The position numbers and the translations under genes are program-made. A stretch of 64,000 bases of DNA from an uncultured Chloroflexia bacterium (GTDB lineage: Bacteria > Chloroflexota > Anaerolineae > Aggregatilineales > UBA3940): positions 101,654 through 165,653 of the forward strand of contig CAWBCR010000013.1 in assembly GCA_963787375.1 (NCBI GenBank). Direction: 5' to 3'. Every line of letters starts with the position of its first letter. Positions within the stretch are counted from its first letter, which is position 1. Below the pieces are notes generated by a model that was not told the DNA's origin, ran no database searches, and worked only from the letters and a program-made list of their open reading frames with translations. Of this stretch, positions 3,095 through 22,702 are shown piece after piece.

Positions 3095-5013
3095 ATGAGC
3101 GGTTTTGCAGTGATCTTCAACCGGGACGGTTCGCCCGTCCCACCGGACAGTCTCGACGCCATTCTGGCGCGCCTCGCCCATCGCGGCCCTGATGGCCGCG
3201 AGGTATGGCAGGCGGGGAACGTGGCGATGGGCCACCTGCATTTCTGGACCACGCCAGAAGATGTTGGCAGCCACCAGCCGCTGTCCGACCCATCGGGCCG
3301 CTTCGTGATCGCGTTCGACGGGCGGCTGGACAATCGCGGCTGACCTGCTGGCTGCGCTCGGCATCGAGAGCAAGCAGGGCGGGCAGATGGCTGACGCCGC
3401 GCTGGCGCTGCAAGCCTTTCTGCGCTGGGGCGATGCGTGTTTCGAGCACCTGCTGGGGCCGCTGGCCGCCGCCATCGTCGACACGGTCGAGCAGCGGGTC
3501 GTGCTGGCGCGTGACGCGCTGGGCAGCCGCTCGGTGTACTATCACCTGGACGAGCACCTGCTGGTGGCGGCGTCGGAGCCGTTCGCGGTGCTGGCGCACC
3601 CGTCCGTTTCGGATGTGCTCGACGAGCGCACGCTGATTCGCTGGTACGCCGTGATGGCCCCGCGTATGGGCGCGACGTTCTTCGCGGATGTGAGTGAACT
3701 GCCCTACGCGCAGGCGATGGCTGTGGATCGGACGCTGGTGCGGCAGTGGCAGCACTGGCAGGTCGACCCGGAGCAGCGGCTGCACTATCGACGCGACGAC
3801 GAATACGCCGAGCACTTCCGCGACCTGCTGACGGAGAGCGTCAGGTGCCGGCTGCGGGCGACAACGCCGGTGGGAGTTTCGTTGAGTGGCGGCTACGACT
3901 CGTCGTCGGTGGCGGCGCTGGCGGCGAAGGAGCTTGCCACGCAGCCTGGCGCGGTGCGGCTGAAGTCATTCACCTGGCTGTTTGACGAACTACCCGAATG
4001 CGATGAGCGGAAATACGCCCAGGCAGTGGTCGATCACTGCGGCCTGGAGTCAGTCGACCATTCCGGGCGCTGACGCCTGGCCGCTGCGCGACTGGCAGAG
4101 CTGGTCGTGCAATCCGAACATGCCGGAAGGCAACGCCTATCGTTTGCTGATTGACCGGCTTTACAGTACAGTGGCGGGCGCAGGCGTGCGCGTGCTGCTG
4201 ACCGGCGCGCATGCTGACCAGGCGCTCACTGGCGGCGACTACTGGCTGGCCGAGCATCTGCGCGATGGGCAGCCGGCTGCCGCGCTGGCGGGTCTGCTGC
4301 GGTTGGTGCGCCGGCAGGGCCTCACCAGCCGGGCAACCCGGACCAGCCTGGTGCAGGTGGTGTCGTGGCTGCTCGATGTGATCCCCGGCGGGCGGCGGGT
4401 CCGCCCAAAGCGCAGGCCGCTGCCGCCGCCGTGGCTGACGCCGCAAGCGCGGGACATTCTCGCGCAGGATATGCTGGCCGACGAGACGCCGCAAGGGCCG
4501 AGGCCGGGCCAGGCAGATGCCATCCTGGGCGGCTACACGACGACGTTCGGCGCGATGTCCGGCGTCTTCGACGGCCTGACAGGCGTCGACACGCGCTATC
4601 CGTACCGCGACCGGCGGCTGGTCGAGTTCCTGATGGCGATACCGGCCTACGAGCTGTTCGATGGCCGGGACCATAAACTTGTGGTTAAGCGGGCCATGGC
4701 GGGCATTCTGCCAGACCTTGTCCTTGACAATCCGGTCCATGGCCGGCTGTACACGCTGTATATGCGCGGCGTGGAGCGCGAGCGGTCCGAATTCGAACGC
4801 ATATTGCACGGGGCTGGCGCGCTGTGGCAGCCATACGTTGAACCGGACGCGCTGTGGCATTCGCTCGATATGGCGCAGAATGGAACGGAGACAGGGCGAA
4901 GTGCCATGCTTCCCTGGTTCTGTGCTGCGGTAGAGATGTGGCGCAGCACAGCAGGCGATAAATCAGCCTGGCATGGCTGGAGGCCACCCAGAGAGACGAT
5001 AGACAGCCTATGA
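3095..5013 (+). pseudogene. Asparagine synthetase B homolog, lasso-peptide cyclase-like (C protein); two frame disruptions as assembled
   Basis: Three colinear pieces (3095-3343, 3387-4073, 3982-5013). The N-terminal Ntn-amidotransferase-like domain starts MSGFAVIF, with Ser where AsnB has the nucleophilic Cys. It has a PP-loop SLSGGYDSSSV. Junctions are near 3335-3345 and 4040-4060. It sits directly upstream of a lasso-type precursor ORF. Confidence 0.8.
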
Positions 5014-5034
5014 ACGATAAACCTCTGAACGAAG

Positions 5035-5202
5035 ATGTGCCCGCCGAAGCAGATGGGCAGAGAACAGCACGCCAAGCGCAAGAAGCCCTATTCAGCGCCG
5101 AGGCTGGAGGTGTATGGCTCGCTGCGCAGCGTCACGCTGGGTGGATCGCCCGGGACCTGGCGATCTGGGCAATCCTACCCTCTACGGGCCAGCAGCCCAT
5201 GA
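5035..5202 (+). CDS. Candidate lasso-peptide precursor (A peptide), 55 aa (49 aa from the alternative ATG at 5053)
   Basis: Own translation, too short for the ORF track: MCPPKQMGREQHAKRKKPYSAPRLEVYGSLRSVTLGGSPGTWRSGQSYPLRASSP. Counting back from the Gly after T-L gives Y-17, P-14, L-12, G-8 and T-2. This exactly matches the YxxPxLx3Gx5Tx lasso leader motif. The core has no Asp/Glu at positions 7-9 as assembled. Confidence 0.55.
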   Translation: MCPPKQMGREQHAKRKKPYSAPRLEVYGSLRSVTLGGSPGTWRSGQSYPLRASSP

Positions 5203-5231
5203 CGGGGCCATGATCCGTATCAGACTGCCGG

Positions 5232-6142
5232 GTGGCGGACATGGGCCAGGCGGCTCGCTATCGCGTCGCCGGGCGCGTGCTGGGCTGCGACAGCCCGCTG
5301 CCGGCGCTGGCCCCATTTCACACAAACGACGAGGAGCCTGGCCTGATGAGCCAGGCTCCATTTGATCTCGACCTGGGGGAGCACCTTGGCACGCGCCGGG
5401 CGACCGGCTGGGTGGCTGAGGAGTGGCGCACGGTGACATGCGCGGCATACGCCGCCGGCTATCGTATCGAGGTGGACGGCGTGGGCCGCTTTGCCGTCAG
5501 CGCCGACGGCAGCCAGATCGTGTGCGAAGAGACGGGCGGGCGAGAGCGTTATTGATGGGCTGCTCGTCGAGACGCTGCTCGGCCCGCCGCTGATCCTCGC
5601 GCTGGCCGCGCAGGGCATCACCTGCCTGCACGCCAGCGCCGTGCTGGTCGATGGGGCGGCGGTGGCGTTTGTGGGCGAGACCGGCGCTGGCAAATCGACG
5701 CTGGCGGCCTACCTGGCGCGGGAAGCGGGCTGGCTGCGGCTGGCCGACGACGTGCTGCCGGTCGCGCTGGGCGGCGCGGGTGGGCCTGCGGCGCTGCCGC
5801 ACTTCCCGCAGTTGAAGCTGCCCGCCGCCGAGCAGGTCGGGCCGGGCGTGCCGCAGCGCATGCCGCTGCGGGCCGTGTACGCGCTGGAGTTCGCCCCCCA
5901 GTGTCGAGACGGCTTCGCTTGAGCCGCTGAGTGGGCACGCCGCCGCCGCTGCGCTGATCGCGCACAGCATGGCCAACAGCCTGTTCGACGAACGGCTGCG
6001 TGCCGCGCACCTGGGAGCCGGCGCATCGGCGGCGGGCGCGCTCGTTGTGCAGCGCCTGATCTACCCGCACCGGCGCGAGGCGCTGCTGGATGTCGCCGCG
6101 CTGCTGGCAGGCACCCTCAGCGCGGGCGGCCCCGTCCGCTGA
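5232..6142 (+). pseudogene. HprK-related (HPr kinase C-terminal-domain-like) kinase; two frame disruptions as assembled
   Basis: N-terminus YRVAGRVLGCDSPLPALAPF, then LHASAVLVDGAAVAFVGETGAGKSTLAAYL (P-loop), then LEPLSGHAAAAALIAHSMANSLFDERL read in a third frame. Shifts are near 5540 and at a C6 run (5894-5899). The 3' end overlaps the convergent nucleotidyltransferase gene by 26 bp. Confidence 0.75.
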
Positions 6143-7274
6143 ACAGCGCCCGCAGCACCTCTCGAATCTGATCCAGCCAGCGAACAATGTAGAACGGCCA
6201 CACAGGCCGGCCTGCCGCGACCGCATAGCGGCGGCGCATGTAGTCCTGTGGCGGAACAGCCACGCGGGCGGCCATCGCCAGGCGATCCGCTGGCGGAAGC
6301 TGGACGAGCCGGCGACGAACCTGGAACCAGCGCGCGCCCTGGCCGCGCAGCCGGTCGACACGGGCCGTGTCCTCGTCGGCGGGGCGGTGCGCGCGGAGCT
6401 GCTCGACCAGACCTGGCGGCAGCGGCGTCTCGAACAGCGCGGCGCAGGTGCTCAGCGCGCGCTCGACCGGGTACGTCCAGCGCAGCGCGGCAGCCTGCTC
6501 GACCGCCAGCGGCCAGTCAGGCGGATCCGCGCAGATCAGCAGGTGTAGGTCGTAGCTGCGCTGGACGTACGTCTCGGCGTGCTGAAGCTCGGCGTGGGCG
6601 CACAGGTAAAGCAGGCTGGCGGTCGGTGTCAGCGTATGGAACTGGCCCCGTGCCGCGCGATACGGCTGCGTCTGCGACCAGAACCAGGCCAGCCCATCCG
6701 GCGACAGTATGCTTTCGTCAACGCTAAGCAGGTGGTGGTGAAGCTCCAGAATCACGGCGCGGGCCGGGCCGCCCATCAGCTGATCATGCTGGCTTCGCTT
6801 GAGGACGAGCGGATCGCCGGGGGCAAACAGGTGCGGGTCGTCGGGGCGGTAGGTGTAGCCCAGCGCGCGGACGGCCTCCAGCGCGTCGGCGCGCCGCGCC
6901 TGCGGAATGAGCACGTCGAGGTCGCTCATGGGACGCAGATCGGGGCGCGGGTAGAGCGTCTGCGCCAGGACGACGCCCTTGATCCACACCGTGTCGATGC
7001 CGGCTGCCTGCAGAACGGCCTCGATTTCCGCCTGCGCGATCTCCAGCGCCGCGTAATGGGCAGCGCTCTGGCGGGCGGACTGCTTCAGTGAGGCTGCGCT
7101 GGCAGCAGGCAGGCTCATGCCGGCCTCGTCGACGCGATGCAGCAGCAGCGGCCCCATGCCGTGCCGGACGGCCAGGCCGGCCAGCGCGGGCCAGCGCTCG
7201 GCGGGTACGGCGTCCGGTGGCAGCCGCCCGGCTACAACGGCAGCAAGCTCCTCAAGCGGAAATAACGAGCCCAT
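6117..7274 (-). CDS. Nucleotidyltransferase-family protein (NTP_transf_5/PF14907-like)
   Basis: ORF 6117-7337. The likely start is MGSLFPLEEL at 7274, 4 nt after the upstream stop. The segment WIKGVVLAQTLYPRPDLRPMSDLDVLIP resembles the catalytic region of the uncharacterised nucleotidyltransferase family that co-occurs with HprK-related kinases. Confidence 0.65.
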   Translation of the reverse strand: MGSLFPLEELAAVVAGRLPPDAVPAERWPALAGLAVRHGMGPLLLHRVDEAGMSLPAASAASLKQSARQSAAHYAALEIAQAEIEAVLQAAGIDTVWIKGVVLAQTLYPRPDLRPMSDLDVLIPQARRADALEAVRALGYTYRPDDPHLFAPGDPLVLKRSQHDQLMGGPARAVILELHHHLLSVDESILSPDGLAWFWSQTQPYRAARGQFHTLTPTASLLYLCAHAELQHAETYVQRSYDLHLLICADPPDWPLAVEQAAALRWTYPVERALSTCAALFETPLPPGLVEQLRAHRPADEDTARVDRLRGQGARWFQVRRRLVQLPPADRLAMAARVAVPPQDYMRRRYAVAAGRPVWPFYIVRWLDQIREVLRALFSGRGRPR

Positions 7275-7278
7275 CGCG

Positions 7279-9054
7279 CTACCGGCCCGGAAGGGTGACG
7301 CTGCCTTCGATGGACAGGTCACCGGGGCAGGTGCCATCGTAAAACGTCACGCGCTGCTCACCGCTGATCACGATCAAGTCCCCCTGCACGGTGATGGTCC
7401 CTGTTATGTCCTCGCTAGTCGTCGCCCGCGCGGCTGAGACGTCGAAGCTGGCGGTGACCGGGTCGTAGGTGCCGAGCAGGAGCGTGCCGTCGATCTGCCG
7501 CAGCAGGCTGATCCGCCGGTCGTTCAGGTTGAAGGTGTAGGTGGCGGTGAAACCTGAGTAGCCGGCGCAGTTGCTGATGTCGGTCGCGTCGATCAGCACC
7601 ACAAACGTGCCGGGCAGCTCCGGCGTCGGCACGGGGCTTGGGAACGCCGTCAGCGGCGTGTCGGGCACGGCGGGGCCTGGCCCGCTTGACACCGGCTGAG
7701 TGCCGATGCCGGTCACCGGCACATCGACCACGACAAACGGCAGCGCGTCAAACTGCGTGGTGGCGACCCAGCCGGTCTGCCCGTCCAGCGTGGCGACGAA
7801 TAGCCACTCGCCGGGATTGTCGCGACCCAGCACGTTGATTACCATCCCCGCCGGCAGGATCGACAGCGCCGCCGCCCCGGCGTCAGGCAGGGCGCGCAGG
7901 TGCGACTCATAGGACAGCGTCACCTGGCCGACGATTCGCGGCGTGGCCGGCGGCGCGGGCGTGGGGAACGCAGTCGGCGGCAGCGGCGTGACGGTGGGCG
8001 TGATCGTCGGCGTCGGGGTACGTGTCGGCGGTGAGTGGTAGCCCGACGGCGCACCTCCCCCTGCCAGGGCGCTCCCCATGAAGCCCACCACCTGGCGGCT
8101 GAACAGCGCAAATGCCCCCAGCAGCAGGCCGCACAGGATGGCGGCCAGCACCGGCAGAAGCCAGCGGCGGTTCGGCGGCTCGATGCGCAGCGGCGGCGGC
8201 TCGTCGTCCAGGATGTCGGGCGGCAGCGCCGCGACCGGCTGGTCAGCCGGAACCTGGAAGACGGCGCAGCCCGCATGATTCGCCGTCAGGCAGGTGCTGG
8301 CCTGGTAGGTCAGCTTGATCGGCTGCGGTACCGCCGGCCTCAGGCAGACATTGCGGGGGAGTAGCACCGCGCCCGTGCGGTCCTCAGCGCCCAGGAAAGA
8401 GCAGTAGCGCGGCTCGACGGGCAGCGGTGGCCGCTGCGGAGTGACGGCCTGCCTGGCGGATGATCCGGGCGGGGAAGGCACATGATCGAAGACATAGACC
8501 TCGGCGTCCCGCTGGAGCATGTCGAGGATGGGGCTGTGGGCGGCGCTCAGCTCGCGCAGGTCGACGTGGCTGGTCACGACGAAGGGAAGTGCATTCCCCT
8601 GGCGATAAGCGATCAAATCCTGAAGCTGCTGCAGTGCTGGGGCGCTCAACTCGACCCACGTGGCGGCAAAGTCGTCGACGATCAACACCGGCGCGCGATA
8701 CAACAGATCGCGCTCGACACCTTCCGGCATCGCGGACAGCAGATCAATGAGACGGCGCAGTGGGAGGAAGACGCCCGGCTGTGCGAGGTGCCCGGCGATG
8801 TACGCGGCCAGCATCGTCCGGCCCGTGCCCACCGCGCCGACGAGTACCAGGCTGCCATGGGGATTCGCGATAAAGGCCTCTGCTGCCCTGAACGCGACAG
8901 CGAACTGCGCGCGCTGGACCGGCGGCAGGCTGTGCGCGACACGCAGAACGTCGTCCCGTGTGAGTGACAGGTAGCGGGCCGGGATGGCACTGATCTGCTG
9001 CGGGTCCCGCGGGCCCGTGTCGCCGGGCTGGTTGTGATCGCTGTCTGCCGTCAT
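7279..9054 (-). CDS. Membrane-anchored P-loop ATPase with 4-Cys motif, single TM segment, Pro/Thr linker, SH3b-like domain and unknown C-terminal domain
   Basis: 591 aa. Walker A GAVGTGRTMLA and Walker B LIVDDF (DnaC/IstB-like AAA). Cys motif YCSFLG...VCLRP...STCLTANHAGCAVF. TM segment WLLPVLAAILCGLLLGAFALF. PTPTITPTVTP linker. GEWLFVATLDGQTGWVATTQF is SH3b-like. Confidence 0.6.
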   Translation of the reverse strand: MTADSDHNQPGDTGPRDPQQISAIPARYLSLTRDDVLRVAHSLPPVQRAQFAVAFRAAEAFIANPHGSLVLVGAVGTGRTMLAAYIAGHLAQPGVFLPLRRLIDLLSAMPEGVERDLLYRAPVLIVDDFAATWVELSAPALQQLQDLIAYRQGNALPFVVTSHVDLRELSAAHSPILDMLQRDAEVYVFDHVPSPPGSSARQAVTPQRPPLPVEPRYCSFLGAEDRTGAVLLPRNVCLRPAVPQPIKLTYQASTCLTANHAGCAVFQVPADQPVAALPPDILDDEPPPLRIEPPNRRWLLPVLAAILCGLLLGAFALFSRQVVGFMGSALAGGGAPSGYHSPPTRTPTPTITPTVTPLPPTAFPTPAPPATPRIVGQVTLSYESHLRALPDAGAAALSILPAGMVINVLGRDNPGEWLFVATLDGQTGWVATTQFDALPFVVVDVPVTGIGTQPVSSGPGPAVPDTPLTAFPSPVPTPELPGTFVVLIDATDISNCAGYSGFTATYTFNLNDRRISLLRQIDGTLLLGTYDPVTASFDVSAARATTSEDITGTITVQGDLIVISGEQRVTFYDGTCPGDLSIEGSVTLPGR

Positions 9055-9135: not shown

Positions 9136-9296
9136 TGCAAAATTCACGAAATCTTCTTCTCCACATAGCGCGCTTTGTGGTACAGTAAGGCTGGATTTAT
9201 CAGACAGAAATGCCCGTATTTATCTTTCTTAACCTTTGGGGGCCCAGATTATGCTGCTTTCCCATTGGAATTATCAGGTCAAGGGGTAAAGGAATC

Positions 9297-10460
9297 ATGG
9301 TTTATAGAGTTTTTGCTGGCCTGCGGGGTCGCTCGATTGAGCGCATCCTGGCAGTTGCCTCGTTTCTGGCGTTGCTGGCGCTGTTTCTGTCGCCGGCTCC
9401 GAGAGCGTTCTCGGAAGAGCTGCCGCCGCCCGAAAATCCGACCTATATTCAGACGAACGCGGCAGGCACCGATATCAGCCGCGGCGACTGGTACACCGCC
9501 GCTGCCGGCGGCGGCCCGGGTGGCTACCAGTATTATGCCATCTACGTGCCGTGCGGCTGGCCGACCAATAAGCCGGTCGATATTGACCTGTACAGCCCCG
9601 AGATGAACCAGAACGCGCTGGGGCTGGCCGATGAGGATGACAACGGCAACATCAACTGGGCCAACCCGACGGCTGCCAACCAGACGACCTTCGAGCTGTA
9701 CAGCCCGGGCACGACCTTTACATCCTATGCGACGCCCGGCCCCGGCGCTGCCGGCAGCCTGATCCAGACCAACTACCTGCCCAGCACCCAGCCCGAGCAG
9801 TGGGTGCGCTTCTACACCATCGACGTCGCCGCGACCGGCTGCGGACAGTACCTCCTGCGCGTAGCCGCTTCTGATGACGACCAGAACGGCTGGCGGCTGC
9901 GCATCGGCGCCGACGACGACAACAATCCCAACAACACCCCGCCGCCACTGGGCTACGACGACGCCGACAATACACCCGGCACCGGCGACGAACTAATCAT
10001 CGGCATGCTGCAGACGGCCTTCCAGCACGACAACGGCGTGCTGACCTGCCTCGACCTGTACCAGTACGTCACCCCCAGCCAGACGTCGGTGACATTCAAC
10101 AACTTTGACTTCGACTACCCCGGTCTGGGCACCGACACAACAGTGACCTATTACTCTCCAAACGGGAGGGTGATAACGGGCACGGCATCGGGCGGCACGG
10201 CCTGGAACAACGGCAGCAACACCACGCGCGGCGGTGATACCTACACCAGCGCCAATGCTGCCTTCGCCAGCGGCTGGTGGCGCATCCGTAGCTGCGTCAC
10301 GAATCACAACCAGTACATTCAGGAAGGCCAGCTTGCGGTGCCGACCTTCTACAAGCAGCCCCCGACGCCGGCCCTGAAGATCGAGAAGACGAACAAGTCT
10401 GTCACGAGGACCAACGGTCAAGTCGATAAGCTACGACATCACGATCACCAACACCTCTAA
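9297..10460 (+). CDS. Giant surface protein, fragment 1: signal peptide + unknown N-terminal domain + start of a DUF11-type repeat
   Basis: ATG 9297 is preceded by AAGGGG/AAGGAA. Signal peptide MVYRVFAGLRGRSIERILAVASFLALLALFLSPAPRAFS. The frame is lost near 10425, where LKIEKTNKSV...SYDITITNTSNVTYTPGE continues in the next frame. Three more shifts occur near 10648, 10692 and 10780. Confidence 0.7.
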   Translation: MVYRVFAGLRGRSIERILAVASFLALLALFLSPAPRAFSEELPPPENPTYIQTNAAGTDISRGDWYTAAAGGGPGGYQYYAIYVPCGWPTNKPVDIDLYSPEMNQNALGLADEDDNGNINWANPTAANQTTFELYSPGTTFTSYATPGPGAAGSLIQTNYLPSTQPEQWVRFYTIDVAATGCGQYLLRVAASDDDQNGWRLRIGADDDNNPNNTPPPLGYDDADNTPGTGDELIIGMLQTAFQHDNGVLTCLDLYQYVTPSQTSVTFNNFDFDYPGLGTDTTVTYYSPNGRVITGTASGGTAWNNGSNTTRGGDTYTSANAAFASGWWRIRSCVTNHNQYIQEGQLAVPTFYKQPPTPALKIEKTNKSVTRTNGQVDKLRHHDHQHL

Positions 10461-10909
10461 CGTGACTTACACACCCGGGGAGGCCAACAGCGTAGTCATT
10501 CGCGACACTCTGCCGGTCAGGGAGCAACGGCGCAACGCCGTCATCTATAATAGCTGCACGGTCAAGCCGCCCTACACCGGCACGTGCACCTACAATGCCA
10601 ACGGTGGCTCGGATCACTACCTCGACATTACCCTTAACCAGGGCATCGAGCGCGGGCGCGACGGCCATCGTCACCCTCAACGTCACGACGAACTGCTGGC
10701 ACACGCACCTACAACAACAGCGCCTGCGTTACCTACACAGATGAGCTCGGCAACCCTTTCCCTTCAACCTGTACGCCACCTTCACCGTCGATAAGCTCCA
10801 GGCGGGTGATACTGTCTGGCTGGACACGGACGGCGATGGCATTCGCGACGTAGGCGAGGCTGGCTTCCCCAACGTCACGCTGCGGCTGTACAACGTCGGC
10901 CCGGACGGC

Positions 10910-12103
10910 GTGCCGGGCGGCGGCGATGACGTGCTGGCGGGCACCACCACCACCGACGCGAACGGCTACTACCTGTTCAACTACACCATACCCGGCACGT
11001 ACTACGTCGACATCGACACCGCGACGCTGCCCGGCGGCGCGGCCCCGTGGACGGCTTCGCCCGGCACCACCGACCCGTCATCGCCGTTTAACCAGAGCGT
11101 CTACCTCGACGCCGACTTTGGCTACGGGGCCAGCCCATCCACCGCTGTGATCGGCGACCTGGTGTGGAGCGATGCCAACAATAACGGCGTCCGCGATCCC
11201 GGCGAGCCTGGCATCAGCGGCGTGACGCTCAACTTGATAGGCCCCGGCCCCGACGGCCTGCTGGGCACCGGCGATGACGTGGTCGTCGCGACGACCACCA
11301 CCAACGACAGCGGCAACTACTACTTCACCGGTGTCACGCCCGGCGAGTACCGGGTCGACGTGACGGACACCGGCGGCAGGCTGGCCGGCTACACCATCAC
11401 AGCGGGCTCACGCGATCCAACGCCGCCCATCACCGTCAACGCCGGCGACAACTACCTGAACGCTGACTTTGGCTACCGCAACACCGGGTTATACACCATC
11501 ACCGAACGTGTGTGGCTCGATACTAACGGCAACGGTGCGCAGGATGCAGGCGAGGTGGGCATTGCGAACGTCTCGGTTAACCTTGTCATCGCCGGCACAG
11601 ATGGCATCTTTGGCACCGCCGATGACCGTGTGATCGCCACCACAATCTCCGCCTCTAACGGCGATTTCACCTTCACCGGCGTGCGCAATGGCGACTACAG
11701 GATCGTGATCGGGGACCGGCATGGCGTGCTCGACGAGTACACCGGCACGACCGCCGATGCTACCAACAAATACCGCAACGTGACTGTCGCTGGTGCGAAC
11801 ATCACCGGCGTCCATTTTGGCTACCACCGCCGGGCACCATCGGCGATACCGTGTTCAGCGACCCGAACAACAATGGCGTGCAGGACCCCGGCGAGCCGGG
11901 CATCGGCGGCGTGTTTGTTGAGCTGTGGCAGGACACCGGCGACGGCGTCTTCAACAGCACAAACGACACGCGGCTCGGAATCACGCGCACGTGGCAGATG
12001 GCACCTATCTTTTCACCGGGCTCATCACCAGCGCCGGTGGCAACCGCTACTACGTGAGCGTTCTGGACAGCACGACGCTCGGCGGTATCAACAACCGATA
12101 TAA
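10910..12103 (+). CDS. Giant surface protein, fragment 2: SdrD-B/Cna-B-like repeats
   Basis: The frame is open from 10745. Repeats have the form GDxVWxDxNxNGxxDxGExGIxGVTxxL...TTTDxxGxYxFxGxxPGxYxV. The sensible reading leaves this frame near 11825 and passes through ORFs 11851-12057 and 11925-12191. Confidence 0.7.
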   Translation: MPGGGDDVLAGTTTTDANGYYLFNYTIPGTYYVDIDTATLPGGAAPWTASPGTTDPSSPFNQSVYLDADFGYGASPSTAVIGDLVWSDANNNGVRDPGEPGISGVTLNLIGPGPDGLLGTGDDVVVATTTTNDSGNYYFTGVTPGEYRVDVTDTGGRLAGYTITAGSRDPTPPITVNAGDNYLNADFGYRNTGLYTITERVWLDTNGNGAQDAGEVGIANVSVNLVIAGTDGIFGTADDRVIATTISASNGDFTFTGVRNGDYRIVIGDRHGVLDEYTGTTADATNKYRNVTVAGANITGVHFGYHRRAPSAIPCSATRTTMACRTPASRASAACLLSCGRTPATASSTAQTTRGSESRARGRWHLSFHRAHHQRRWQPLLRERSGQHDARRYQQPI

Positions 12104-12254
12104 CCAGGACGGGCTGCTCGGCTTTACGCGGACAACTGCTGACAATGAGACAGGCGTGAATGCCTCGGCACCCAGCGGACGATTGTGCTGACGATGCGTC
12201 GCACGCATCAACCTGACTGCCGACTTCGGCTACCGCAACACCAACCTGGTCAGC

Positions 12255-15200
12255 GTGTCGGGCACGGTGTGGAACGACCTCAACGTCAACGCCTACATCG
12301 ACGGCGGCGAGCCGGACCTCAGCAACGTGACGGTCGACCTGCTGGACGCCAAGGGGCGCGTGGTGGCTACCACCACCACCGACGCCAACGGCAACTACAC
12401 CTTCAGCGGCGTGCCGCGCGGCGGGTACACTGTGACGATCACCGACCGGAACCGCGTGCTGAACGGCTTCGAGCTTACCAGCGGCCTCGACAGCATCCCG
12501 GTGGCAGTGTGGACCAGCAACATCACCGGCGTCAACTTTGGCTACGTGCGCCCGCCATACAATGGCAGCATCGGCGACTTCGTGTGGTTTGACTCGGACC
12601 GCGACGGCGTGCAGGATGCCGGCGAAGGCGGCATCTCCGGAGTCACGCTGAACCTGTACAGCACCGGCACCGACGACATCATCGGCAATGGCGATGACGT
12701 GCTGATCGGCACGACCACGACCGACGCCACCGGCCACTACACCTTCGAGGGGCTTGCCCCCGGCAACTACTACGTCGACCCCGACGAGACCACGCTACCC
12801 AGCGGGCTGGCGGCGACGTTCGGGACCGGCGGCAACAGCGGCATGATCAACCTGAGTGCCAGCGAGACGTACGATAAAGCTGACTTCGGCTATGCGTCGT
12901 CGGGCGGCACCGTCGCCCTGGGCGACCGCGTGTGGTACGACGCCGACGGCAACGGCCTTCAGGACCCTGGCGAGGTGGGCATTGGCGGTGTGACCATCAC
13001 CATCACCGGCCCATCCGGCACGTTCCATGTGACCACCCGCCCTGACGGCTCGTGGCTGCAAACGGGCCTCGCGCCCGGCGACTATACCGTCACGGTAGAT
13101 GCCACGAACTTCTCGAGCGGCGTGCTACAGCCTCCCTATAACGCGACGCCGACCAACGGCCCGGTTTCGCGCACGCTGACTGTCCCACCGGGACAGGACG
13201 TGCTGTATGCCGACTTTGGTTTCAACGGCGGCACCGCCGGCACCATCGGCGACACGGTCTTCCTGGACCCCAACGGCAATGGCGTGCAGAATAGCGGCGA
13301 GCCCGGCCTGGCAGACGTGACGCTCAACCTGATCAACCAGACGACGGGTGCGATCATCGCGTCGACCGTCACCGACTCGGATGGGCACTACAGCTTCGTC
13401 GGCGTGCCCGCCGGAACGTACACCGTCCAGGTTACCGACATCAACGGTAAACTGGCCGGGCTGGTCAACTCAACCGTTAACCCCATCACCTCGATTGTGC
13501 TGGCCAGCGGCGCGACGTACAACGACGCCGACTTCGGCTACGTGCCGACCGCCGGCTCCATCGGTGACCTGGTGTGGAACGACATCAACGGCGACGGCGT
13601 GCACGACGCGGGCGAGCCCGGCATCCAGGGCGTCGAAGTCGACCTGTACTTTGACGTAAACGGCGACGGGCTGCTCGACCCCGGTGTGGACAACCTGATC
13701 CGCACCACATACACGGACGTCAACGGCCAGTACGGGTTCGAGGGCCTGCCGGTTGGCTCCTTCCTGGTGGACGTGGTCGAAACCAGCTCTGCGCTGACCG
13801 GCTTCTCAAAGACAACGGGCCCCAATCCGGGCACCAACGACAACAGCCAGTCTGACCCATACGTAGTGGTGCTGACCACTTCTACGTCAATCCGGAACGA
13901 TACGGCAGACTTTGGCTTCCAGGCGACCGGCACCGCCTACTCGATCACCGGCATCACGTTTGAGGACGTGAACAACAACGGTGCCTTCAACAGCGGCACC
14001 GACAAGCCCACCAGTAGCGTCCTGCTGTACCTGTATCGCGATCTGGATGGCGACGGTGTTCTGGACCCCGGCGAGCCGCTCATCGACCAGACTGTTTCGG
14101 GCAGCACCGGGACTGCCGGAGCCTACACCTTCGACGGTCTGCCGAACGGGCACTATATCGTGCAGGCGGACGCCTCGCACTCGATCCTGAATGGCTTCCA
14201 GCAGACGACGCAGACGACTTCGGGTGGTGTGCAGCCGGTGTTTATCAACAACGCCGACTCGGCCAACAACAACCTTGGCTTCTATGCCCCCGGCGGCGCG
14301 CAGACGACGCCCGTCACGCTGTCCTACTTCCACGCCTTCGATCAGGGTGAGACACTGCGTTTCGACTGGTCGACGTCGCTGGAGATTGGCAACGTCGGCT
14401 TCAACCTGTTCGCCAAGGTCGGCGGCGACCTGCGCCCGATCAACGACACGCTGATCGCCTCGCAGGCGGTCGACTCGACCGAGCGGCTGGATTATACCTA
14501 CACGGCCACCGGTGTTGAGGGCAGCACCTTCTACATCCAGGACGTCGACGTGCTGGGCCAGCCACAGATGCATGGACCGTTCGCGCTGGGCCAGGCCAGC
14601 GGCCAGCGTATCGCCCCCGACCCCATCGACTGGGCCAGCATCCAGGCCGAAAACGACAGCCTGGCCGCGCAGCGGCTGGCTGCCGAACGCGCCGCCGCTG
14701 AGGCTCAGGTCGCGCAGGCGCAGCTAAGCGACGGGCACGGGTTTGCCCGCGTGCGCCGCTCAGTTGCAACGGCGCTGGAATGGGTCGGTGGCCTGTTCAA
14801 CGGGAAGCAGGCGGCTGCCGACAGCGGCTACCCGGTCTTCAACCTGACGCTCGACCATACCGGCCTGTATCGCGTCACCTACGAGCAGCTTGCCGCCGCC
14901 GGGCTTGACCTGGACGGCGTGGCCGCCGCGGACATCGCGCTGACGTCTCAGGGCGCAAGCGTGCCCGTCCGCGTGGTGGGCGATCCGTTCGGGCCGGGCA
15001 GCTTCATCGAGTTCTACGGCGAGGCACTCGACACACTCTACACGCACACCAACGTGTACGCGCTGCACGTGGACCACAGCCTGGTGAGCCAGGTGGCGGT
15101 CGACAACACGCCGGTCGATGCAGGCGCGCCGGTTGCCAGCTACTACATGGCGCAGGCCACCTACGGCTCGGACAAGGCGTACTCCTTCAGCTCGCCAAAC

Positions 15201-17639
15201 GGCGACCCGTGGTATGACACGTCGATGCTGGCGCGCACGTCATCCAAGTCGTGGAACTACACCATCGCCGTTGATAACTACGCGGCCAGCGCAGCCCCCG
15301 CTACGTTGGACGTGCAGATGTGGGGCAGCACCGACTGGCCGCAGTCACCCGACCACCGCGTCGTGGTCGGCTTCAATGGCACGAACATCGCCGATCTGAC
15401 CGTCAACGGTATCGTCAACATCCCGGTGACGGCCAATCTACCGGATGGCACGCTGCAATCGGGCAACAACACGCTCAAGGTGACGCTGCCCGGCGATACT
15501 GGCGTGGCATACGACCTGGTAATGTTCGACAAGGCGACGGTGACCTATCCGCGCGGCTTTGTCGCCAAGAACGGCGCGCTGACCTTTGACGGGTCGGCGC
15601 AGGCTTTCCGAGTGACGAACCTGCCCTCGCCTAACGTGACCGTGTACCGCATCGACTCCGACGGCAGCCAGACGCTGCTGGCGGCCAGTGTCGATGGCAG
15701 CGGCGGCTCGTACAGCGCCACCTTCGCCGGCACGTCACATAACGCAACCTACATCGTGACGGCGGACAGCGCTGTGCGCACGCCCGACGTCGTACCCGGC
15801 AGCCAGCCGGTCGACCTGCTTGGCGGCAAGACCGACTTCCTGATCATCGCGCATCCCAACTTCATCGACGGCATCCAGACGCTGGCGCAGGTACGCGCGG
15901 CGCAGGGCCTCAAGGTGCGGGTGGTCAGCGTCGACGACGTGTACGCGCAGTACAGCGGCGGTGTGTTCGACCCGCAGGCCATCCGCGACTACATCAAGGA
16001 CGCGGTGAAGCAGGACGGTGTCAAATACGTGCTGCTGGTCGGCGGTGACACGTACGACTATCTGCACAACACCAGTGCCAGCGCGATCAGCTTTATCCCG
16101 ACTCTGTACGCGCCCACCGACGACCTAGGCATCGTGCAGTATGCGCCGGTCGACCCGCTGTACGCGGACGTGAACGGCGACAACGTACCGGACGTGGCGC
16201 TGGGGCGCTTCCCGGTGCGCACGAACGCCGAGCTTGACAGCATGATCGCCAAGACGCTGGCCTATGAAACCAACGACTACGGGCAGACGGCGGTCTTCGC
16301 CGCCGATATCTACGACGGCTCTGGCGACCAGCCGCTCAACTTCAGCGCTGACAGCGATGCGCTGATCTCGCAGCTTGGCGATGGTTGGTCGGTACAGCGC
16401 GCCTACCTGGACAACAGCAGCGTTGCAGCGGCGCAGGCCACCCTCGTTGATGCGATCAACAACGGCGTGGCGCTGACCAGCTTCATCGGCCACTCGTCGT
16501 ATGACCGCTGGACCTTCAGCGGGCTGTTCAGCATGAACCAGGCGACCGCGCTCACCAATGCGGGGAGCCCGACCATCATCAGCCAGTGGGGCTGCTGGAA
16601 TACCTACTTCGTCTCACCGACGGCCAACACGCTGGGCCACGCCTTCCTGCTCTCCGGCGACCGGGGCGCAGCAGCGGTGATGGGCTCATCGACGCTGACC
16701 GAGGACGCATCGGAGACGGCCCTCGGCCACATCCTGAACCCGTACCTCGTCCAGCCGGGCATGCGCATCGGCGACGCCATTACGCAGGCCAAGGCCGACC
16801 TGGCGGTAACCGACCCGTCGCTGCGCGATGTCTATCTTGGATGGACGCTGCTTGGCGACCCAACGCTGACCGTCGTGCGCGACCCGCACGCCAGCATGGC
16901 CCCGGTGGTCGATGCCGGCGCGAACGTCAGCACCAACATGGGCGACGAAGTGGGCTTCTCCGGTACCGTGCTTGACCTCGACCCTGGCGACAGCACCAGC
17001 GCCGCCTGGGACTTCGGCGACGGCACGACCGGCGGCGACACACTGACCCCAACCCACGTCTACACCTGGCCGGGCGTCTACACCGTCACGTTGACGGCAA
17101 CTGACAGCACCGACAAGACCGGCAGCGACACGCTGACTGTCACCGTGGGCGCGAACGGGGCCACCGTTGCGACCATCCAGCCTAACCCCGGCCTGTCTGC
17201 CGGCGAGGTCATGGTCTATCAGAATGGCTGGGAGACGCTCGACGGCAGCGTGGACGGCGCGGGCCGCCTCGCGGTGCAGCTCGACGCACTCCCGGATGAC
17301 ACGCCGCTGACGGCCCTCTACACCGTCACGCCTGCCCAGGACCTGGCGCTGTGCGGCCCGGCGGGACAGTGCGCCATCACACTGAACGGCGCGCCGGTCG
17401 ACACGACCCGCACCACGGCGGACGATGGCAGCATCGTCTACACGGCGGATAACACGCTGGCGGCAGGCACCGCCACGCTGATCGGGCTGGGGCTTGACCC
17501 CACCGCAGGCGGCGCAGGCGTCGATACGGCGCTCGAACTCCAACACCAACGTGCAGGTCTCGGCGCAGGGCGACATCGCGCAGGTGCTGTCCATGCCCGA
17601 CGGCGACGCGCAGCCGACCGGGATCGTCACCGCGGGTGA
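12255..17639 (+). CDS. Giant surface protein, fragment 3: SdrD-B-like repeats + peptidase C25 (gingipain-like) module with propeptide-like region + PKD domain
   Basis: 1794 aa. About 9 SdrD-B-like repeats come first. The C25-type module runs from GYPVFNLTLDHTGLYRVTYEQLAAAGLDL to LGDPTLTV (14826-16873), with candidate catalytic His (FIGHSSYDRW) and Cys (ISQWGCWNTYF). A PKD domain follows (WDFGDGTTGGDTLTPTHVYTWPGVYTVTLTATD). Confidence 0.8.
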   Translation: MSGTVWNDLNVNAYIDGGEPDLSNVTVDLLDAKGRVVATTTTDANGNYTFSGVPRGGYTVTITDRNRVLNGFELTSGLDSIPVAVWTSNITGVNFGYVRPPYNGSIGDFVWFDSDRDGVQDAGEGGISGVTLNLYSTGTDDIIGNGDDVLIGTTTTDATGHYTFEGLAPGNYYVDPDETTLPSGLAATFGTGGNSGMINLSASETYDKADFGYASSGGTVALGDRVWYDADGNGLQDPGEVGIGGVTITITGPSGTFHVTTRPDGSWLQTGLAPGDYTVTVDATNFSSGVLQPPYNATPTNGPVSRTLTVPPGQDVLYADFGFNGGTAGTIGDTVFLDPNGNGVQNSGEPGLADVTLNLINQTTGAIIASTVTDSDGHYSFVGVPAGTYTVQVTDINGKLAGLVNSTVNPITSIVLASGATYNDADFGYVPTAGSIGDLVWNDINGDGVHDAGEPGIQGVEVDLYFDVNGDGLLDPGVDNLIRTTYTDVNGQYGFEGLPVGSFLVDVVETSSALTGFSKTTGPNPGTNDNSQSDPYVVVLTTSTSIRNDTADFGFQATGTAYSITGITFEDVNNNGAFNSGTDKPTSSVLLYLYRDLDGDGVLDPGEPLIDQTVSGSTGTAGAYTFDGLPNGHYIVQADASHSILNGFQQTTQTTSGGVQPVFINNADSANNNLGFYAPGGAQTTPVTLSYFHAFDQGETLRFDWSTSLEIGNVGFNLFAKVGGDLRPINDTLIASQAVDSTERLDYTYTATGVEGSTFYIQDVDVLGQPQMHGPFALGQASGQRIAPDPIDWASIQAENDSLAAQRLAAERAAAEAQVAQAQLSDGHGFARVRRSVATALEWVGGLFNGKQAAADSGYPVFNLTLDHTGLYRVTYEQLAAAGLDLDGVAAADIALTSQGASVPVRVVGDPFGPGSFIEFYGEALDTLYTHTNVYALHVDHSLVSQVAVDNTPVDAGAPVASYYMAQATYGSDKAYSFSSPNGDPWYDTSMLARTSSKSWNYTIAVDNYAASAAPATLDVQMWGSTDWPQSPDHRVVVGFNGTNIADLTVNGIVNIPVTANLPDGTLQSGNNTLKVTLPGDTGVAYDLVMFDKATVTYPRGFVAKNGALTFDGSAQAFRVTNLPSPNVTVYRIDSDGSQTLLAASVDGSGGSYSATFAGTSHNATYIVTADSAVRTPDVVPGSQPVDLLGGKTDFLIIAHPNFIDGIQTLAQVRAAQGLKVRVVSVDDVYAQYSGGVFDPQAIRDYIKDAVKQDGVKYVLLVGGDTYDYLHNTSASAISFIPTLYAPTDDLGIVQYAPVDPLYADVNGDNVPDVALGRFPVRTNAELDSMIAKTLAYETNDYGQTAVFAADIYDGSGDQPLNFSADSDALISQLGDGWSVQRAYLDNSSVAAAQATLVDAINNGVALTSFIGHSSYDRWTFSGLFSMNQATALTNAGSPTIISQWGCWNTYFVSPTANTLGHAFLLSGDRGAAAVMGSSTLTEDASETALGHILNPYLVQPGMRIGDAITQAKADLAVTDPSLRDVYLGWTLLGDPTLTVVRDPHASMAPVVDAGANVSTNMGDEVGFSGTVLDLDPGDSTSAAWDFGDGTTGGDTLTPTHVYTWPGVYTVTLTATDSTDKTGSDTLTVTVGANGATVATIQPNPGLSAGEVMVYQNGWETLDGSVDGAGRLAVQLDALPDDTPLTALYTVTPAQDLALCGPAGQCAITLNGAPVDTTRTTADDGSIVYTADNTLAAGTATLIGLGLDPTAGGAGVDTALELQHQRAGLGAGRHRAGAVHARRRRAADRDRHRG

Positions 17640-18762
17640 TACCGGCGGCGACGCGACAGCCAGCTTCACGCTCGACAGCACGACGCAGGATGCGCTGTGC
17701 GTGGCCGCCAACGGCTGCTCGATCTTCGCTGGCGACGCCGAGACGCCGCTGGCGACCACCTACACGGCGCAGGACGATGGCAGCGCGCAGTACAGCGCAG
17801 CCCTGACCTTCGAGCCGTACGAGACGAAAGTGCTCACGCTGCGGCCCTACAGCGACACAACTCCGCCGGTCGTCAACTCGTTCGACGTGACGCCGCTCAC
17901 CGTCATGGGTGGGCAGGACGTGACCATCAGCGCCAGCCTGCACGATGACGGCGCGCTGGCCAGCGTCATCGCAACAGTCGACTTCGACGGCACGCAGACA
18001 CCCATCACGCTGACGCCGGTCGACGGGCAGCCGGGCAGCTTCCAGGCGACCTGGACCGCGCCCGATGGCGGCAACGGTGCCTTCAGCATGACGCTCGAAG
18101 CGCAGGACGCGACCGGCAATACTGCGACCAGCGATCCGATCAGCGGCGTGGTCGACAGCGAACCGCCGGCGCTCACCGGGCTGGTGGTCGACGCTGCGAA
18201 CTTCGACGGCGATGTGCCGCTCACCGCGCCGGGCGACTGCCTGACCTATCACGTGACCGCCGAGGACACGCTCAGCGGCGTGGCAGCGGTCACTCTGACC
18301 ATCACCGGGCCGGATGGGTCGACCAGCGACGTGGCGCTGACCTACGACGAAACCGCCGCAGAGTATAGCGGCCAGGTCTGCACCACCGCCGAAAGCCCGA
18401 CCGGCGACTACACCGCAGCCGTCCAGATCGCCGACGCGGCGGGCAATACCGCCAGCGCCGACGGCGGGACGTTCAAGCTGCTGACGCCACTGAGCGTCAC
18501 GCTGGGGCCGGACCAGTCGGCGGGCGTGGGCGAAGACGTGGCATTCAGCGCGACCATCGACAACGCCGACCCGAACGAGACGTACACCATCAACTGGGAC
18601 TTCGGTGACGGCGGCACAGCGGACGGCTCGCTCGACGCGACGCACGCCTACGCCGATGCCGGCAGCTACACGGTGACCGTCAGCGTGACGGACTCGCATG
18701 GCGGCAGCGGATCGGCCACGCAGACCGTAACCGTAGCCGACGCGCCCGCCGATCAGCCTTGA
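17494..18762 (+). CDS. Giant surface protein, fragment 4: Ig-like domains + PKD domain
   Basis: It continues fragment 3 after a shift near 17520. It contains beta-rich Ig-like modules (TPPVVNSFDVTPLTVMGGQDVTISASLHDDG...) and a PKD domain (INWDFGDGGTADGSLDATHAYADAGSYTVTVSVTDSHGG). Confidence 0.7.
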   Translation: MTPPQAAQASIRRSNSNTNVQVSAQGDIAQVLSMPDGDAQPTGIVTAGDTGGDATASFTLDSTTQDALCVAANGCSIFAGDAETPLATTYTAQDDGSAQYSAALTFEPYETKVLTLRPYSDTTPPVVNSFDVTPLTVMGGQDVTISASLHDDGALASVIATVDFDGTQTPITLTPVDGQPGSFQATWTAPDGGNGAFSMTLEAQDATGNTATSDPISGVVDSEPPALTGLVVDAANFDGDVPLTAPGDCLTYHVTAEDTLSGVAAVTLTITGPDGSTSDVALTYDETAAEYSGQVCTTAESPTGDYTAAVQIADAAGNTASADGGTFKLLTPLSVTLGPDQSAGVGEDVAFSATIDNADPNETYTINWDFGDGGTADGSLDATHAYADAGSYTVTVSVTDSHGGSGSATQTVTVADAPADQP

Positions 18763-19021
18763 GCGTCACGCTGGGGCCGGACCAGTCGGCGGGCGTGGGC
18801 GATGACGTGGCGTTCAGCGCGGCCATCGACAACGCCGACCCGAACGAGACGTACACCATCAACTGGGACTTCGGTGACGGCGGCACAGCGGACGGCTCGC
18901 TCGACGCGACGCACGCCTACGCCGATGTCGGCAGCTACACGGTGACCGTCAGCGTGACGGACTCGCATGGCGGCACCGGCTCGGCCACACAGACCGTAAC
19001 CGTAGCCGACGCGCCCGCCGA
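18491..19021 (+). repeat. Near-identical tandem duplication (period 269 bp) encoding two PKD domains
   Basis: 18491-18752 and 18760-19021 align base for base with only a handful of substitutions (for example gaagac/gatgac, gcattc/gcgttc, gcgacc/gcggcc, gatgcc/gatgtc, agcgga/accggc). Confidence 0.85.
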
Positions 19022-19355
19022 ACCGCAGACAGTCACCATCACCGTGAAGGGTGGCAAGGTCACGCTGAACCAGCGGAACGGCCAGACGACCGTCCAGATT
19101 GGCAACAGGAGCTTTGACGGCTCGCAGATCGACATAAGCACCGTGCGCTTCGGCGTGGCCGGCACGGAGGCCAGCGGAACGCAGTCCGGCAAGATCAAGA
19201 AGGGCACCCTGACGCTGGTCTTCTCGACCGCCGACCTGGGCATCACGCCTGAAGTGGTCAGCGGCGGCAGGGTGACGCTGGTGATGATCGGCAACCTGAA
19301 GGACGGCACGCCGTTCGTGGGTACCACCGAGGTCAAGGTCATGGGCCTCAGGTAG
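18759..19355 (+). CDS. Giant surface protein, fragment 5: second PKD copy + C-terminal domain
   Basis: It begins at the junction of a 269-bp tandem repeat, which is not a multiple of 3. Its PKD domain is near-identical to the one in fragment 4. It ends ...TTEVKVMGLR, followed by a strong terminator. Confidence 0.7.
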   Translation: MSVTLGPDQSAGVGDDVAFSAAIDNADPNETYTINWDFGDGGTADGSLDATHAYADVGSYTVTVSVTDSHGGTGSATQTVTVADAPAEPQTVTITVKGGKVTLNQRNGQTTVQIGNRSFDGSQIDISTVRFGVAGTEASGTQSGKIKKGTLTLVFSTADLGITPEVVSGGRVTLVMIGNLKDGTPFVGTTEVKVMGLR

Positions 19356-22400: not shown

Positions 22401-22598
22401 CGTCCCGGCGGTTGTCGCAGCGCTGTCGTCGGCGGCGACGGGCGGCGTGTTAGGTCCACTCGTGCGGCTGGCGCCGTGCGCACCATCAGACGCGTAAGCC
22501 AGCGGCGGCAGCGCCAGTGCAATTACTACCAGGAGCATAGTAACTATGAGCTTTGCGCTGGGAAGATAGTTGTGCTGGCGATGTGCTTTCATGGTCAT
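19449..22598 (-). CDS. Secreted cadherin-like-repeat protein with C-terminal peptidase C25 (gingipain-like) module; paralog of the module in 12255-17639
   Basis: The ORF extends to 22655. The likely start is ATG 22598 (MTMKAHRQHNYLPSAKLIVTMLLVVIALALPPLAYA) after GCGGGGA. It has three repeats of about 100 aa (PPVAADDSAATTAGTAVSIDVTANDQDPDHGD...FTYIVNDKHDATSNIATVTITV). The C25 module runs from SYPTYDLRVSADGLYQVTYEDLQAAGLDL to LGDPTLIVTP, with MGHGAVDRW (His) and ADFNCWGTYF (Cys). Confidence 0.85.
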   Translation of the reverse strand: MTMKAHRQHNYLPSAKLIVTMLLVVIALALPPLAYASDGAHGASRTSGPNTPPVAADDSAATTAGTAVSIDVTANDQDPDHGDTVNVKTVIIVSDPADGSISLNMTKGIVTYTPNPDFTGEDSFTYIVNDKHDATSNIATVTITVEPAPPVTPPIANDDSAVTDVRTSVRISVADNDQETDSGDSLNLKSVSIITPPANGRVSVNKKAVATYTPSRGFSGIDSFTYTITDKQGAVSNVATVTITVGTPLAPPADSSAPTAVDDSASVDENASVDINVLANDIAASGQLDPATVTIVGTPALGTAAVDLDSGLVAYTPDAGTPGDDTFSYTVQDDSGAVSNVALVTVAVDVVTDTPLPDVPPADPNISYPTYDLRVSADGLYQVTYEDLQAAGLDLAGVPASSIALTARGASIPVDMIGGDVFGLGSSIVFYGQAAHSLYTDANVYELQVNGGLASHASVNLTSAQPGAALTASYEETATYDENHGYTFSSPLADPWYAQQMLVYKTSKNWIFNLSVDNLVAGAAPASLAVQMYGGTDWPATPDHHVVIALNSATVADQMFNGLGSQPVDVSLTADALHDGDNAVALTLPGDSGVDYEIVNLESIAITYPRAFVARGGGLSFTASGEAFRVTNLPSPDVLVYRLDGSGMTRLAGALVEPDGASYSVTFPGTAANDRYVVSAAGSLNTPAIAAARPAADITSGTTDFLIISHADFIDGIQPLVQARQAQGMSVRVVDAADVYAQFSGGVFDPQAIHDYITYAVNNMGVKAVLLVGGDTIDYHRYQYPNAVSYIPTLYAPTSFVEIRYAPSDPLYADVNGDNMPDVALGRFPVRTQAELNTLVGKTLAYGSKDYANTAIFAADKVQSGEWLWWNNFSDGFITYLGSDWTVQRDYLDDTDVATAHAALIDAINGGVALTSYMGHGAVDRWSYSGLFNAGDALALTNAGRPTVVADFNCWGTYFVQPDDNTLAYAFLLSGDHGAAALMGTPTLGIANAEQQFGNLLMDHLGQPGTSIGQAVQAAKADLARTAPYWTDIFQQWTILGDPTLIVTP

Positions 22599-22702
22599 TT
22601 GTGTCCCCGCAGTTCTCTGTCTGATGTGCTGTGTGCTATGGGTTCTCGGACCCAATCCGCCTTCGGCATGCTTCTCGTGTTATGTTCTAAGCGTAAACGA
22701 AA

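Follow-up and report, generated by a model that had tools for sequence, protein, structure and literature searches.

The precursor gene and its family

The 64-kb stretch analyzed here (the window; positions 101,654–165,653 of contig CAWBCR010000013.1 from an uncultured Chloroflexia bacterium, numbered from its first letter) contains a lasso peptide precursor gene between the genes of an Asn-synthase-like lasso cyclase (3095–5013, + strand) and an HprK-like P-loop kinase homologue (5232–6142, + strand). As assembled, the frame 1 peptide (frames are named by codon position modulo 3) runs from ATG 5035 to TGA 5200–5202 and has 55 amino acids, reading MCPPKQMGREQHAKRKKPYSAPRLEVYGSLRSVTL as the leader and GGSPGTWRSGQSYPLRASSP up to the stop. 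The leader peptide occupies 5035–5139 and the core peptide 5140–5213, both on the + strand. Relative to the Leu/Gly junction at 5139/5140, Tyr, Pro, Leu, Gly, and Thr fall on positions −17, −14, −12, −8, and −2, exactly as the original prediction had read them, and the core begins with Gly (GGT, 5140–5142) directly after Thr-Leu. The first five core residues in frame 1 are GGSPG (5140–5154), and positions 7–9 are W7 R8 S9. The prediction had found no Asp or Glu at positions 7–9 and no possibility of a canonical macrolactam, and the assembled core indeed holds no acidic residue anywhere. Frame 2 reads ...PGPGDLGNPTLYGPAAHDGAMI... and reaches its first stop at 5365. Frame 0 contains a 67-codon open reading frame (ORF) at 5010–5213, whose ATG overlaps the TGA of the cyclase gene (ctATGAac, 5010–5013), an overlap that had also been pointed out.

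A profile search collected 386 related peptides, the best 120 of which were used for core statistics and for a family hidden Markov model (HMM) that excluded the window. Among the 1340 ORFs of the six-frame translation of the window, the sole match to this HMM was the ORF at 5029–5199 (59.2 bits, E = 1.9e-17), and the runner-up had an E value of 0.85. At the level of sequence, the match of the precursor to this family, defined in this analysis and called GGSPGxG(D/E)SG (GGSPG) after its core, is far beyond chance. The leader also scored 24 bits against NCBIfam NF033521 (lasso_leader_L3), above the curated cut-off of 19. Several family members carry the name of this model in NCBI, "lasso RiPP family leader peptide-containing protein" (RiPP, a peptide made by ribosomes and modified after translation), but its span is limited to a 20-residue stretch at the leader's end, and it is silent on the GGSPGxGDSG core and the gene neighborhood. 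That the gene is a lasso precursor and adjoins a lasso cyclase is borne out by the family HMM and by the Asn-synthase-like cyclase at 3095–5013, and the precursor is a new member of an established kind of lasso precursor, disrupted in the assembly.

The consensus GGSPGxG(D/E)SG follows the Thr-Leu pair directly and is nearly invariant. In the best 120 homologues, the conserved residues are G1 (118), G2 (118), S3 (120), P4 (118), G5 (120), G7 (113), D/E8 (120), S9 (118), and G10 (102). The median core and leader lengths are 20 and 43 residues, respectively; 36 of these sequences end in Pro and three in Ser. The family is spread over bins of Chloroflexota, Acidobacteriota, Methylococcales, Xanthomonadales, and Deltaproteobacteria (proteins P0121–P0240; loci L088–L153). 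Lasso peptide cores are normally hypervariable, and such a near-invariant core across phyla is unusual for lasso peptides. A literature search found no characterized member of the GGSPG family, and nothing relevant was returned for GGSPG together with "lasso peptide".

Comparison with the precursors beside homologous cyclases, which had been proposed as a check, revealed a conserved, uninterrupted small ORF at the same position, between cyclase and kinase, in the loci of the three closest cyclase homologues (L001, L003, and L004). Their shared gene order is cyclase, small ORF, kinase, NTP_transf_5 nucleotidyltransferase (minus strand), PqqD (B1), transglutaminase-like B2, and SH3 protein (minus strand). 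The three syntenic precursors read ...KKNYHSPRFEKYGSLRNITL followed by GGSPGAGDSGASPTYKPFGQIDAF, ...KKKPYTQPKLESYGHLHNVTL followed by GSSSGIGESGNREFVP, and ...RTPYHAPRFEKYGSLQNITF followed by GSKPGIGDSLSPLTNQG, where the first part is the leader and the second the core.

Two start codons are candidates for the precursor gene. ATG 5035 gives a leader of 35 amino acids and requires no further repair, whereas ATG 5010 in frame 0 gives one of 43 amino acids, equal to the family median, and requires an extra base within 5010–5070. Codon-usage scoring of the short leader start does not separate the two. The original prediction had derived the longer leader from a +1 error near 5085–5095; this site is excluded because the stretch encodes the conserved leader segment KKPYSA in frame 1, while the start at 5010 itself may stand if the error lies upstream of ~5070.

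Reconstruction of the core

A single-deletion scan with the family HMM located a suspect site at the very point where the core loses its acidic residue. Removal of one base anywhere in 5148–5156 lifted the score from 58.9 to 63–65 bits and turned T-W-R into (T/P)-G-D. The extra base can be placed within 5149–5158, after which G7 and D8 are read from 5159–5164 in frame 2, and the restored core start, GGSPG(T/P)GD, would permit a Gly1–Asp8 ring. This ring had been foreseen from a reading across the CCCGGG run, which lies at 5149–5154 and not at 5148–5153. The homologues agree with it: the syntenic relatives begin their cores with GGSPGAGDS, GSSSGIGES, and GSKPGIGDS, and an acidic residue is present at position 8 throughout the 120. 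Because the single-base deletion brings back (T/P)-G-D and at once improves the match to the family, we regard the predicted ring, with Gly1 closed on Asp8, as well supported, although it depends on the repair of the frame.

The reconstructed peptide would consist of the leader ending in ...KKPYSAPRLEVYGSLRSVTL, the core start GGSPG(T/P)GD, and one of two tails, LGNPTLYGP... (option A) or SGQSYPLRASSP (option B). In option A, frame 2 is kept (GDLGNPTLYGP...), and a second indel in 5192–5210 is required to reach TGA 5211–5213 or TGA 5200–5202; as an example, reading the GGGG run at 5204–5207 as GGG gives ...AAHDGP and the stop. Of 153 family tails, 14 contain the GNP motif, and GNPTLF and GNPTVF are present as well. 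In option B, a T is missing at 5164/5165 and the frame returns to 1, so that the tail reads ...GDSGQSYPLRASSP and the stop at 5200–5202 is used as assembled. The full core is then GGSPGTGDSGQSYPLRASSP, with the near-invariant Ser9 restored. Position 9 is Ser in this reading but Leu when frame 2 is kept. The two-event reconstructions scored 66.9 (option A) and 69.3 bits (option B) against the family HMM, and a search with the option B reconstruction retrieved two relatives only, neither of which had a GQSYPL-like tail. The tail is either option A or option B, and we do not choose between them. In every reconstruction, the C-terminal residue is Pro.

Here, we propose a maturation pathway based on established lasso biochemistry. 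The leader motif YxxPxLxxxGxxxxxTx would direct processing, and the leader would be cut after Thr−2/Leu−1. The Asn-synthase-like cyclase would adenylate the side chain of Asp8 and join it to the amine of Gly1, forming an eight-residue ring around the tail. Further tailoring of the peptide may come from the HprK-like kinase and the NTP_transf_5 enzyme. As to the site of phosphorylation, PMC9266682 and PMC6993621 describe PadeK, ThcoK, SyanK, and PsmK as kinases that phosphorylate a conserved C-terminal Ser, and other kinase-linked precursors in the fetched loci end in Ser (...DLTFS, ...DITS, and ...GIYS). The original prediction had suggested that the Ser-rich end ASSP would suit a paeninodin-type kinase. 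This link is not supported because neither the GGSPG family, with its three Ser-ending members of 120 despite the kinase, nor the reconstructions of the window end in Ser. The conserved candidate sites for the kinase in this family would rather be Ser3, or Ser9 where it is present.

The cluster shares features with known systems. Paeninodin (PadeA/PadeK) and ThcoA/SyanA, class II lasso peptides tailored by a kinase (Zhu et al. 2016, as summarized in PMC9266682), have the same split-B-type leader motif (YxxPxL...T−2) and a small N-terminal ring residue. As in the ring predicted for the repaired core, closure is on an Asp at position 8/9, and their clusters likewise include an HprK-like kinase gene. 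The corrected kinase of the window retains the His...GKS...DD motifs. In the same account, however, the C-terminal Ser of paeninodin and ThcoA/SyanA is strictly conserved and phosphorylated, unlike in the GGSPG family. The pseudomycoidin cluster of Bacillus pseudomycoides (psmCAKB1B2ND) likewise combines cyclase, precursor, HprK-like kinase, and an uncharacterized NTP-transferase (PMC6993621). Pseudomycoidin has an Ala1–Glu9 ring and a C-terminal Ser that bears phosphate and hexose (PMC6993621), whereas the family of the window has the predicted Gly1–Asp8 ring and no C-terminal Ser. Also unlike pseudomycoidin, this family has a core that is almost invariant and is accompanied by a giant C25 peptidase gene.

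Neighboring genes and origin of the frame breaks

The cyclase gene is distributed over three frames (2, 0, and 1 in this order) and was recognized by Pfam Asn_synthase and GATase matches on its fragments and by tblastn. Its +1 breaks lie near 3336–3341 and 4040–4058. All but 3% of the stitched protein of 638 amino acids can be aligned with cyclases of 607–668 amino acids from Anaerolineae-type metagenome bins at ~50% identity. Its top NCBIfam match is the lasso cyclase model NF033535 (374.7 bits, under the cut-off of 525). In a profile scan of genome contigs with the cyclase alignment, identity was at most 41% among the matches listed. The ScmC-like kinase gene runs through frames 0, 1, and 2, as established by tblastn and the junction sequences, with +1 breaks in GGGCGGG (5534–5540) and in a C6 run (5894–5899). 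The corrected protein of 299 amino acids can be aligned from end to end, and the motifs LHASA, GxxGAGKSTLA, ADDVLP, and PHFPQLKLP are retained in it. Its similarity to HprK is weak: the relatives are matched to TIGR04352 (HprK_rel_A), ScmC, and Hpr_kinase_C, and the score of 26 bits against TIGR04352, whose cut-off is 200, makes it only distantly similar to the paeninodin-type kinases. Inside the kinase ORF, at 5333–5359 (+ strand), there is a GC-rich hairpin of 10 bp with ATTTGATCTC directly after it. It was rejected as a terminator in view of this location and of the number of such sites in the region, which is not above that of shuffled sequence.

Downstream of the kinase, an intact NTP_transf_5 nucleotidyltransferase gene (N, a PsmN-like tailoring candidate; 6117–7337, − strand; likely start ATG 7274) was identified by Pfam PF14907 (E = 6e-44) and by single-frame tblastn matches to three relatives. 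An intact gene at 7279–9054 (− strand) follows, whose product combines an AAA N-terminus of the DnaI/IstB-like type with a linker rich in Pro and Thr and with an SH3_3 domain; its synteny is kept in the closest relatives, and it adjoins the lasso cluster in L001, L003, and L004 as well. Two Peptidase_C25 genes lie beyond it. One encodes a giant surface protein with SdrD_B repeats, Peptidase_C25, and PKD domains (9210–19355, + strand; Pfam Peptidase_C25, E = 1.2e-72) and is frameshifted according to its frame map; it is of the kind of C25 gene that co-occurs with the GGSPG precursors. The other is intact and encodes a protein with cadherin/Big_9 repeats and a C-terminal C25 domain (19449–22679, − strand; E = 1.6e-67), in which the invariant GH...C pair is present.

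No gene for B1 (PqqD) or B2 (transglutaminase) was found in the 64-kb window by tblastn or by six-frame searches with HMMs made from 66 B1 and 61 B2 sequences. In the three closest relatives, both genes lie between the NTP_transf_5 and SH3 genes, and they are gone from that site in the window. Within the fetched flanks, B1 was present in 10 and B2 in eight of the 22 family loci of at least 10 kb, and the loci without B genes include L005–L008, L085, L086, L102, L105, and L128. B1/B2 are dispensable for pseudomycoidin in heterologous hosts (Zyubko et al. 2019, PMC6993621), and the cyanobacterium Stanieria has a cluster of cyclase, precursor, and kinase with no B genes (PMC6993621), which resembles that of the window. 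Absence of B1/B2 is only a weak argument for decay, and no proof of it, because most family loci of at least 10 kb lack them and B-less clusters have already been described (PMC6993621).

We interpret the region from 5035 (or 5010) to 5202/5213 as a lasso precursor gene (A) in a cluster of the order C-A-K-N, whose reading frame is broken in the assembly, with a probability of about 0.6. The indels of the lasso operon are probably assembly or base-calling errors. The operon breaks are all +1, i.e. one extra base, mostly in short runs of G or C. The original prediction had suspected an indel-prone assembly, and frameshifts are in fact found well beyond the cyclase and the kinase: an amidohydrolase gene has lost one base at ~1995 (1990–2000, − strand), one G too many stands in the GGG of a YjbQ-like gene at ~34715 (+ strand) and one T too many in the TT of a sugar ABC permease gene at ~39465 (+ strand), and the giant C25 gene contains at least six frame breaks (10400–12200 and 17536–18755) and an in-frame stop at 12189–12191. 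The window has two hot spots of breaks, namely the lasso operon and the C25 gene, which are also the two partners found together in the family. Two +1 corrections each in the cyclase and kinase genes suffice for full-length alignment with the invariant motifs kept and no in-frame stop. Exact records of the window's own proteins were lacking in the protein collections, as expected of an unannotated, low-quality assembly, and this was counted in favor of assembly error.

Several observations weigh against this interpretation. The operon has six to seven breaks in 3 kb, compared with none in the adjoining 2.9 kb (NTP_transf_5 and SH3 genes), a ~10-fold higher density, and uniform random error predicts neither this clustering nor the single direction of the breaks. 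Error and mutation were weighed against each other from the assembled sequence alone. In addition, the near-invariant Ser9 (118/120) becomes Leu in the frame 2 reading, the 64-kb window is without B1/B2 genes, and the lasso topology is only deduced, because no member of the GGSPG family has a characterized product. A rival explanation is genuine decay, in which the indels would be real mutations, the C, A, K, and giant C25 genes would be pseudogenes, B1/B2 would have been lost, and no lasso peptide would be made. Such decay does occur in related clusters, since the locus L087 (4700–12900) is interrupted by DDE transposase genes, its cyclase being split and its kinase truncated. The presence of B1/B2 in all three closest relatives, the concentration of breaks in the operon and in the family-wide partner C25 gene, with its in-frame stop, and the change of Ser9 to Leu in the simplest reconstruction are all consistent with it. 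However, the corrected cyclase has only five changes at otherwise invariant columns, within the range of zero to seven in intact homologues, the kinase retains every conserved motif, and neither in-frame stops nor larger deletions were found in the lasso operon. The single indels in the unrelated permease, YjbQ-like, and amidohydrolase genes also speak for error, more than half of the family loci are B-less, and the SH3/NTP_transf_5 junction has a tidy, operon-type spacing of 4 nt. We therefore consider decay a serious contender but rather doubtful.

Readings in which the assembled sequence is correct and functional fare much worse. The 55-amino acid peptide with the core GGSPGTWRSGQSYPLRASSP might be an acid-less product, non-cyclized or non-canonically modified, as its ORF is complete from ATG to TGA, GGSPG is kept, and S9-G10 stand in the register of the family. 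Yet D/E8 is present in all 120 and G7 in 113 of the homologues, W7-R8 is unprecedented among them, and the adjoining cyclase and kinase genes are themselves out of frame. The frame 1 core also has the lowest codon-usage score of the three frames (−12.2 bits), a measure that is indecisive at such a short length. An acid-less peptide is thus very improbable. Biological decoding of the breaks, either through programmed +1 frameshifting of the ribosome or through transcriptional slippage, would fit the uniform +1 direction and the first cyclase break, which abuts an in-frame TGA. At four of the five sites, however, the next stop comes 15–45 nt later, and the position mapped for the second cyclase break is upstream of the stop. 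Programmed +1 frameshifting was rejected because the sites share no slippery motif and each of these proteins is encoded in one uninterrupted frame in the relatives. Likewise, the frame 0 ORF at 5010–5213, which exactly spans the gap from the cyclase stop to the kinase start, could be an unrelated small gene, but its 67-amino acid product matches no family or profile, including the family HMM, and ORFs of 67 codons are common in DNA of 66% GC; it was ruled out as a gene. We rate these last two possibilities, taken together, as even more remote than the acid-less peptide. The precursor gene with a frame broken in the assembly remains the preferred reading.

Association with giant Peptidase_C25 proteins

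Peptidase_C25 genes occur in 13 of the 22 family loci of at least 10 kb, compared with none of 63 other lasso-cyclase loci (Fisher p = 7e-10). The GGSPG loci that bear them are L006, L008, L086, L087, L089, L094, L111, L117–L122, L128, L133, L143, and L147. In L006, L008, L086, L089, L094, L111, L117, L119, and others, the C25 gene has the same orientation as the cyclase or precursor gene and is placed directly upstream of it, or between the two, often as part of one operon. In L086 (4412–9195), the GGSPG precursor overlaps the stop of a C25 gene of 1530 codons, and no cyclase, kinase, or B gene is located within 9 kb on either side. The C25 domains share an invariant GH...C pair ~40 residues apart, a putative catalytic dyad by analogy with clan CD peptidases. 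A literature search for C25 or gingipain with lasso peptides found no paper linking them.

We tentatively suggest that the GGSPGxGDSG peptides form a distinct class of lasso-type RiPPs that works with giant secreted Peptidase_C25 proteins (clan CD cysteine peptidases). Several roles are conceivable for the C25 protein: it could act as leader peptidase, it could be a target that the peptide inhibits or regulates, or it could attach the peptide as a transpeptidase. The near-invariant core across phyla suggests one conserved partner rather than an antibiotic shaped by an arms race, and the frequent absence of B1/B2 and the kinase without a C-terminal Ser substrate were also counted for such a partnership. 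If it is true, the breaks of the window in exactly these two partners would reflect a joint loss of the system.

For the annotation of such loci, a gene caller would report either the homologue-less frame 0 ORF of 67 amino acids or the acid-less frame 1 peptide and would miss the canonical Gly1–Asp8 core, whereas comparison with the relatives recovers the ring with confidence and pinpoints the suspect bases. Of wider interest is the combination of an invariant core, a C25 partner, frequent absence of B1/B2, and an HprK-like kinase without a C-terminal Ser, which is unusual for lasso precursors. The C25 link, if functional, would introduce a new enzyme partner or target into lasso biology and would bear on how B-less clusters remove the leader.

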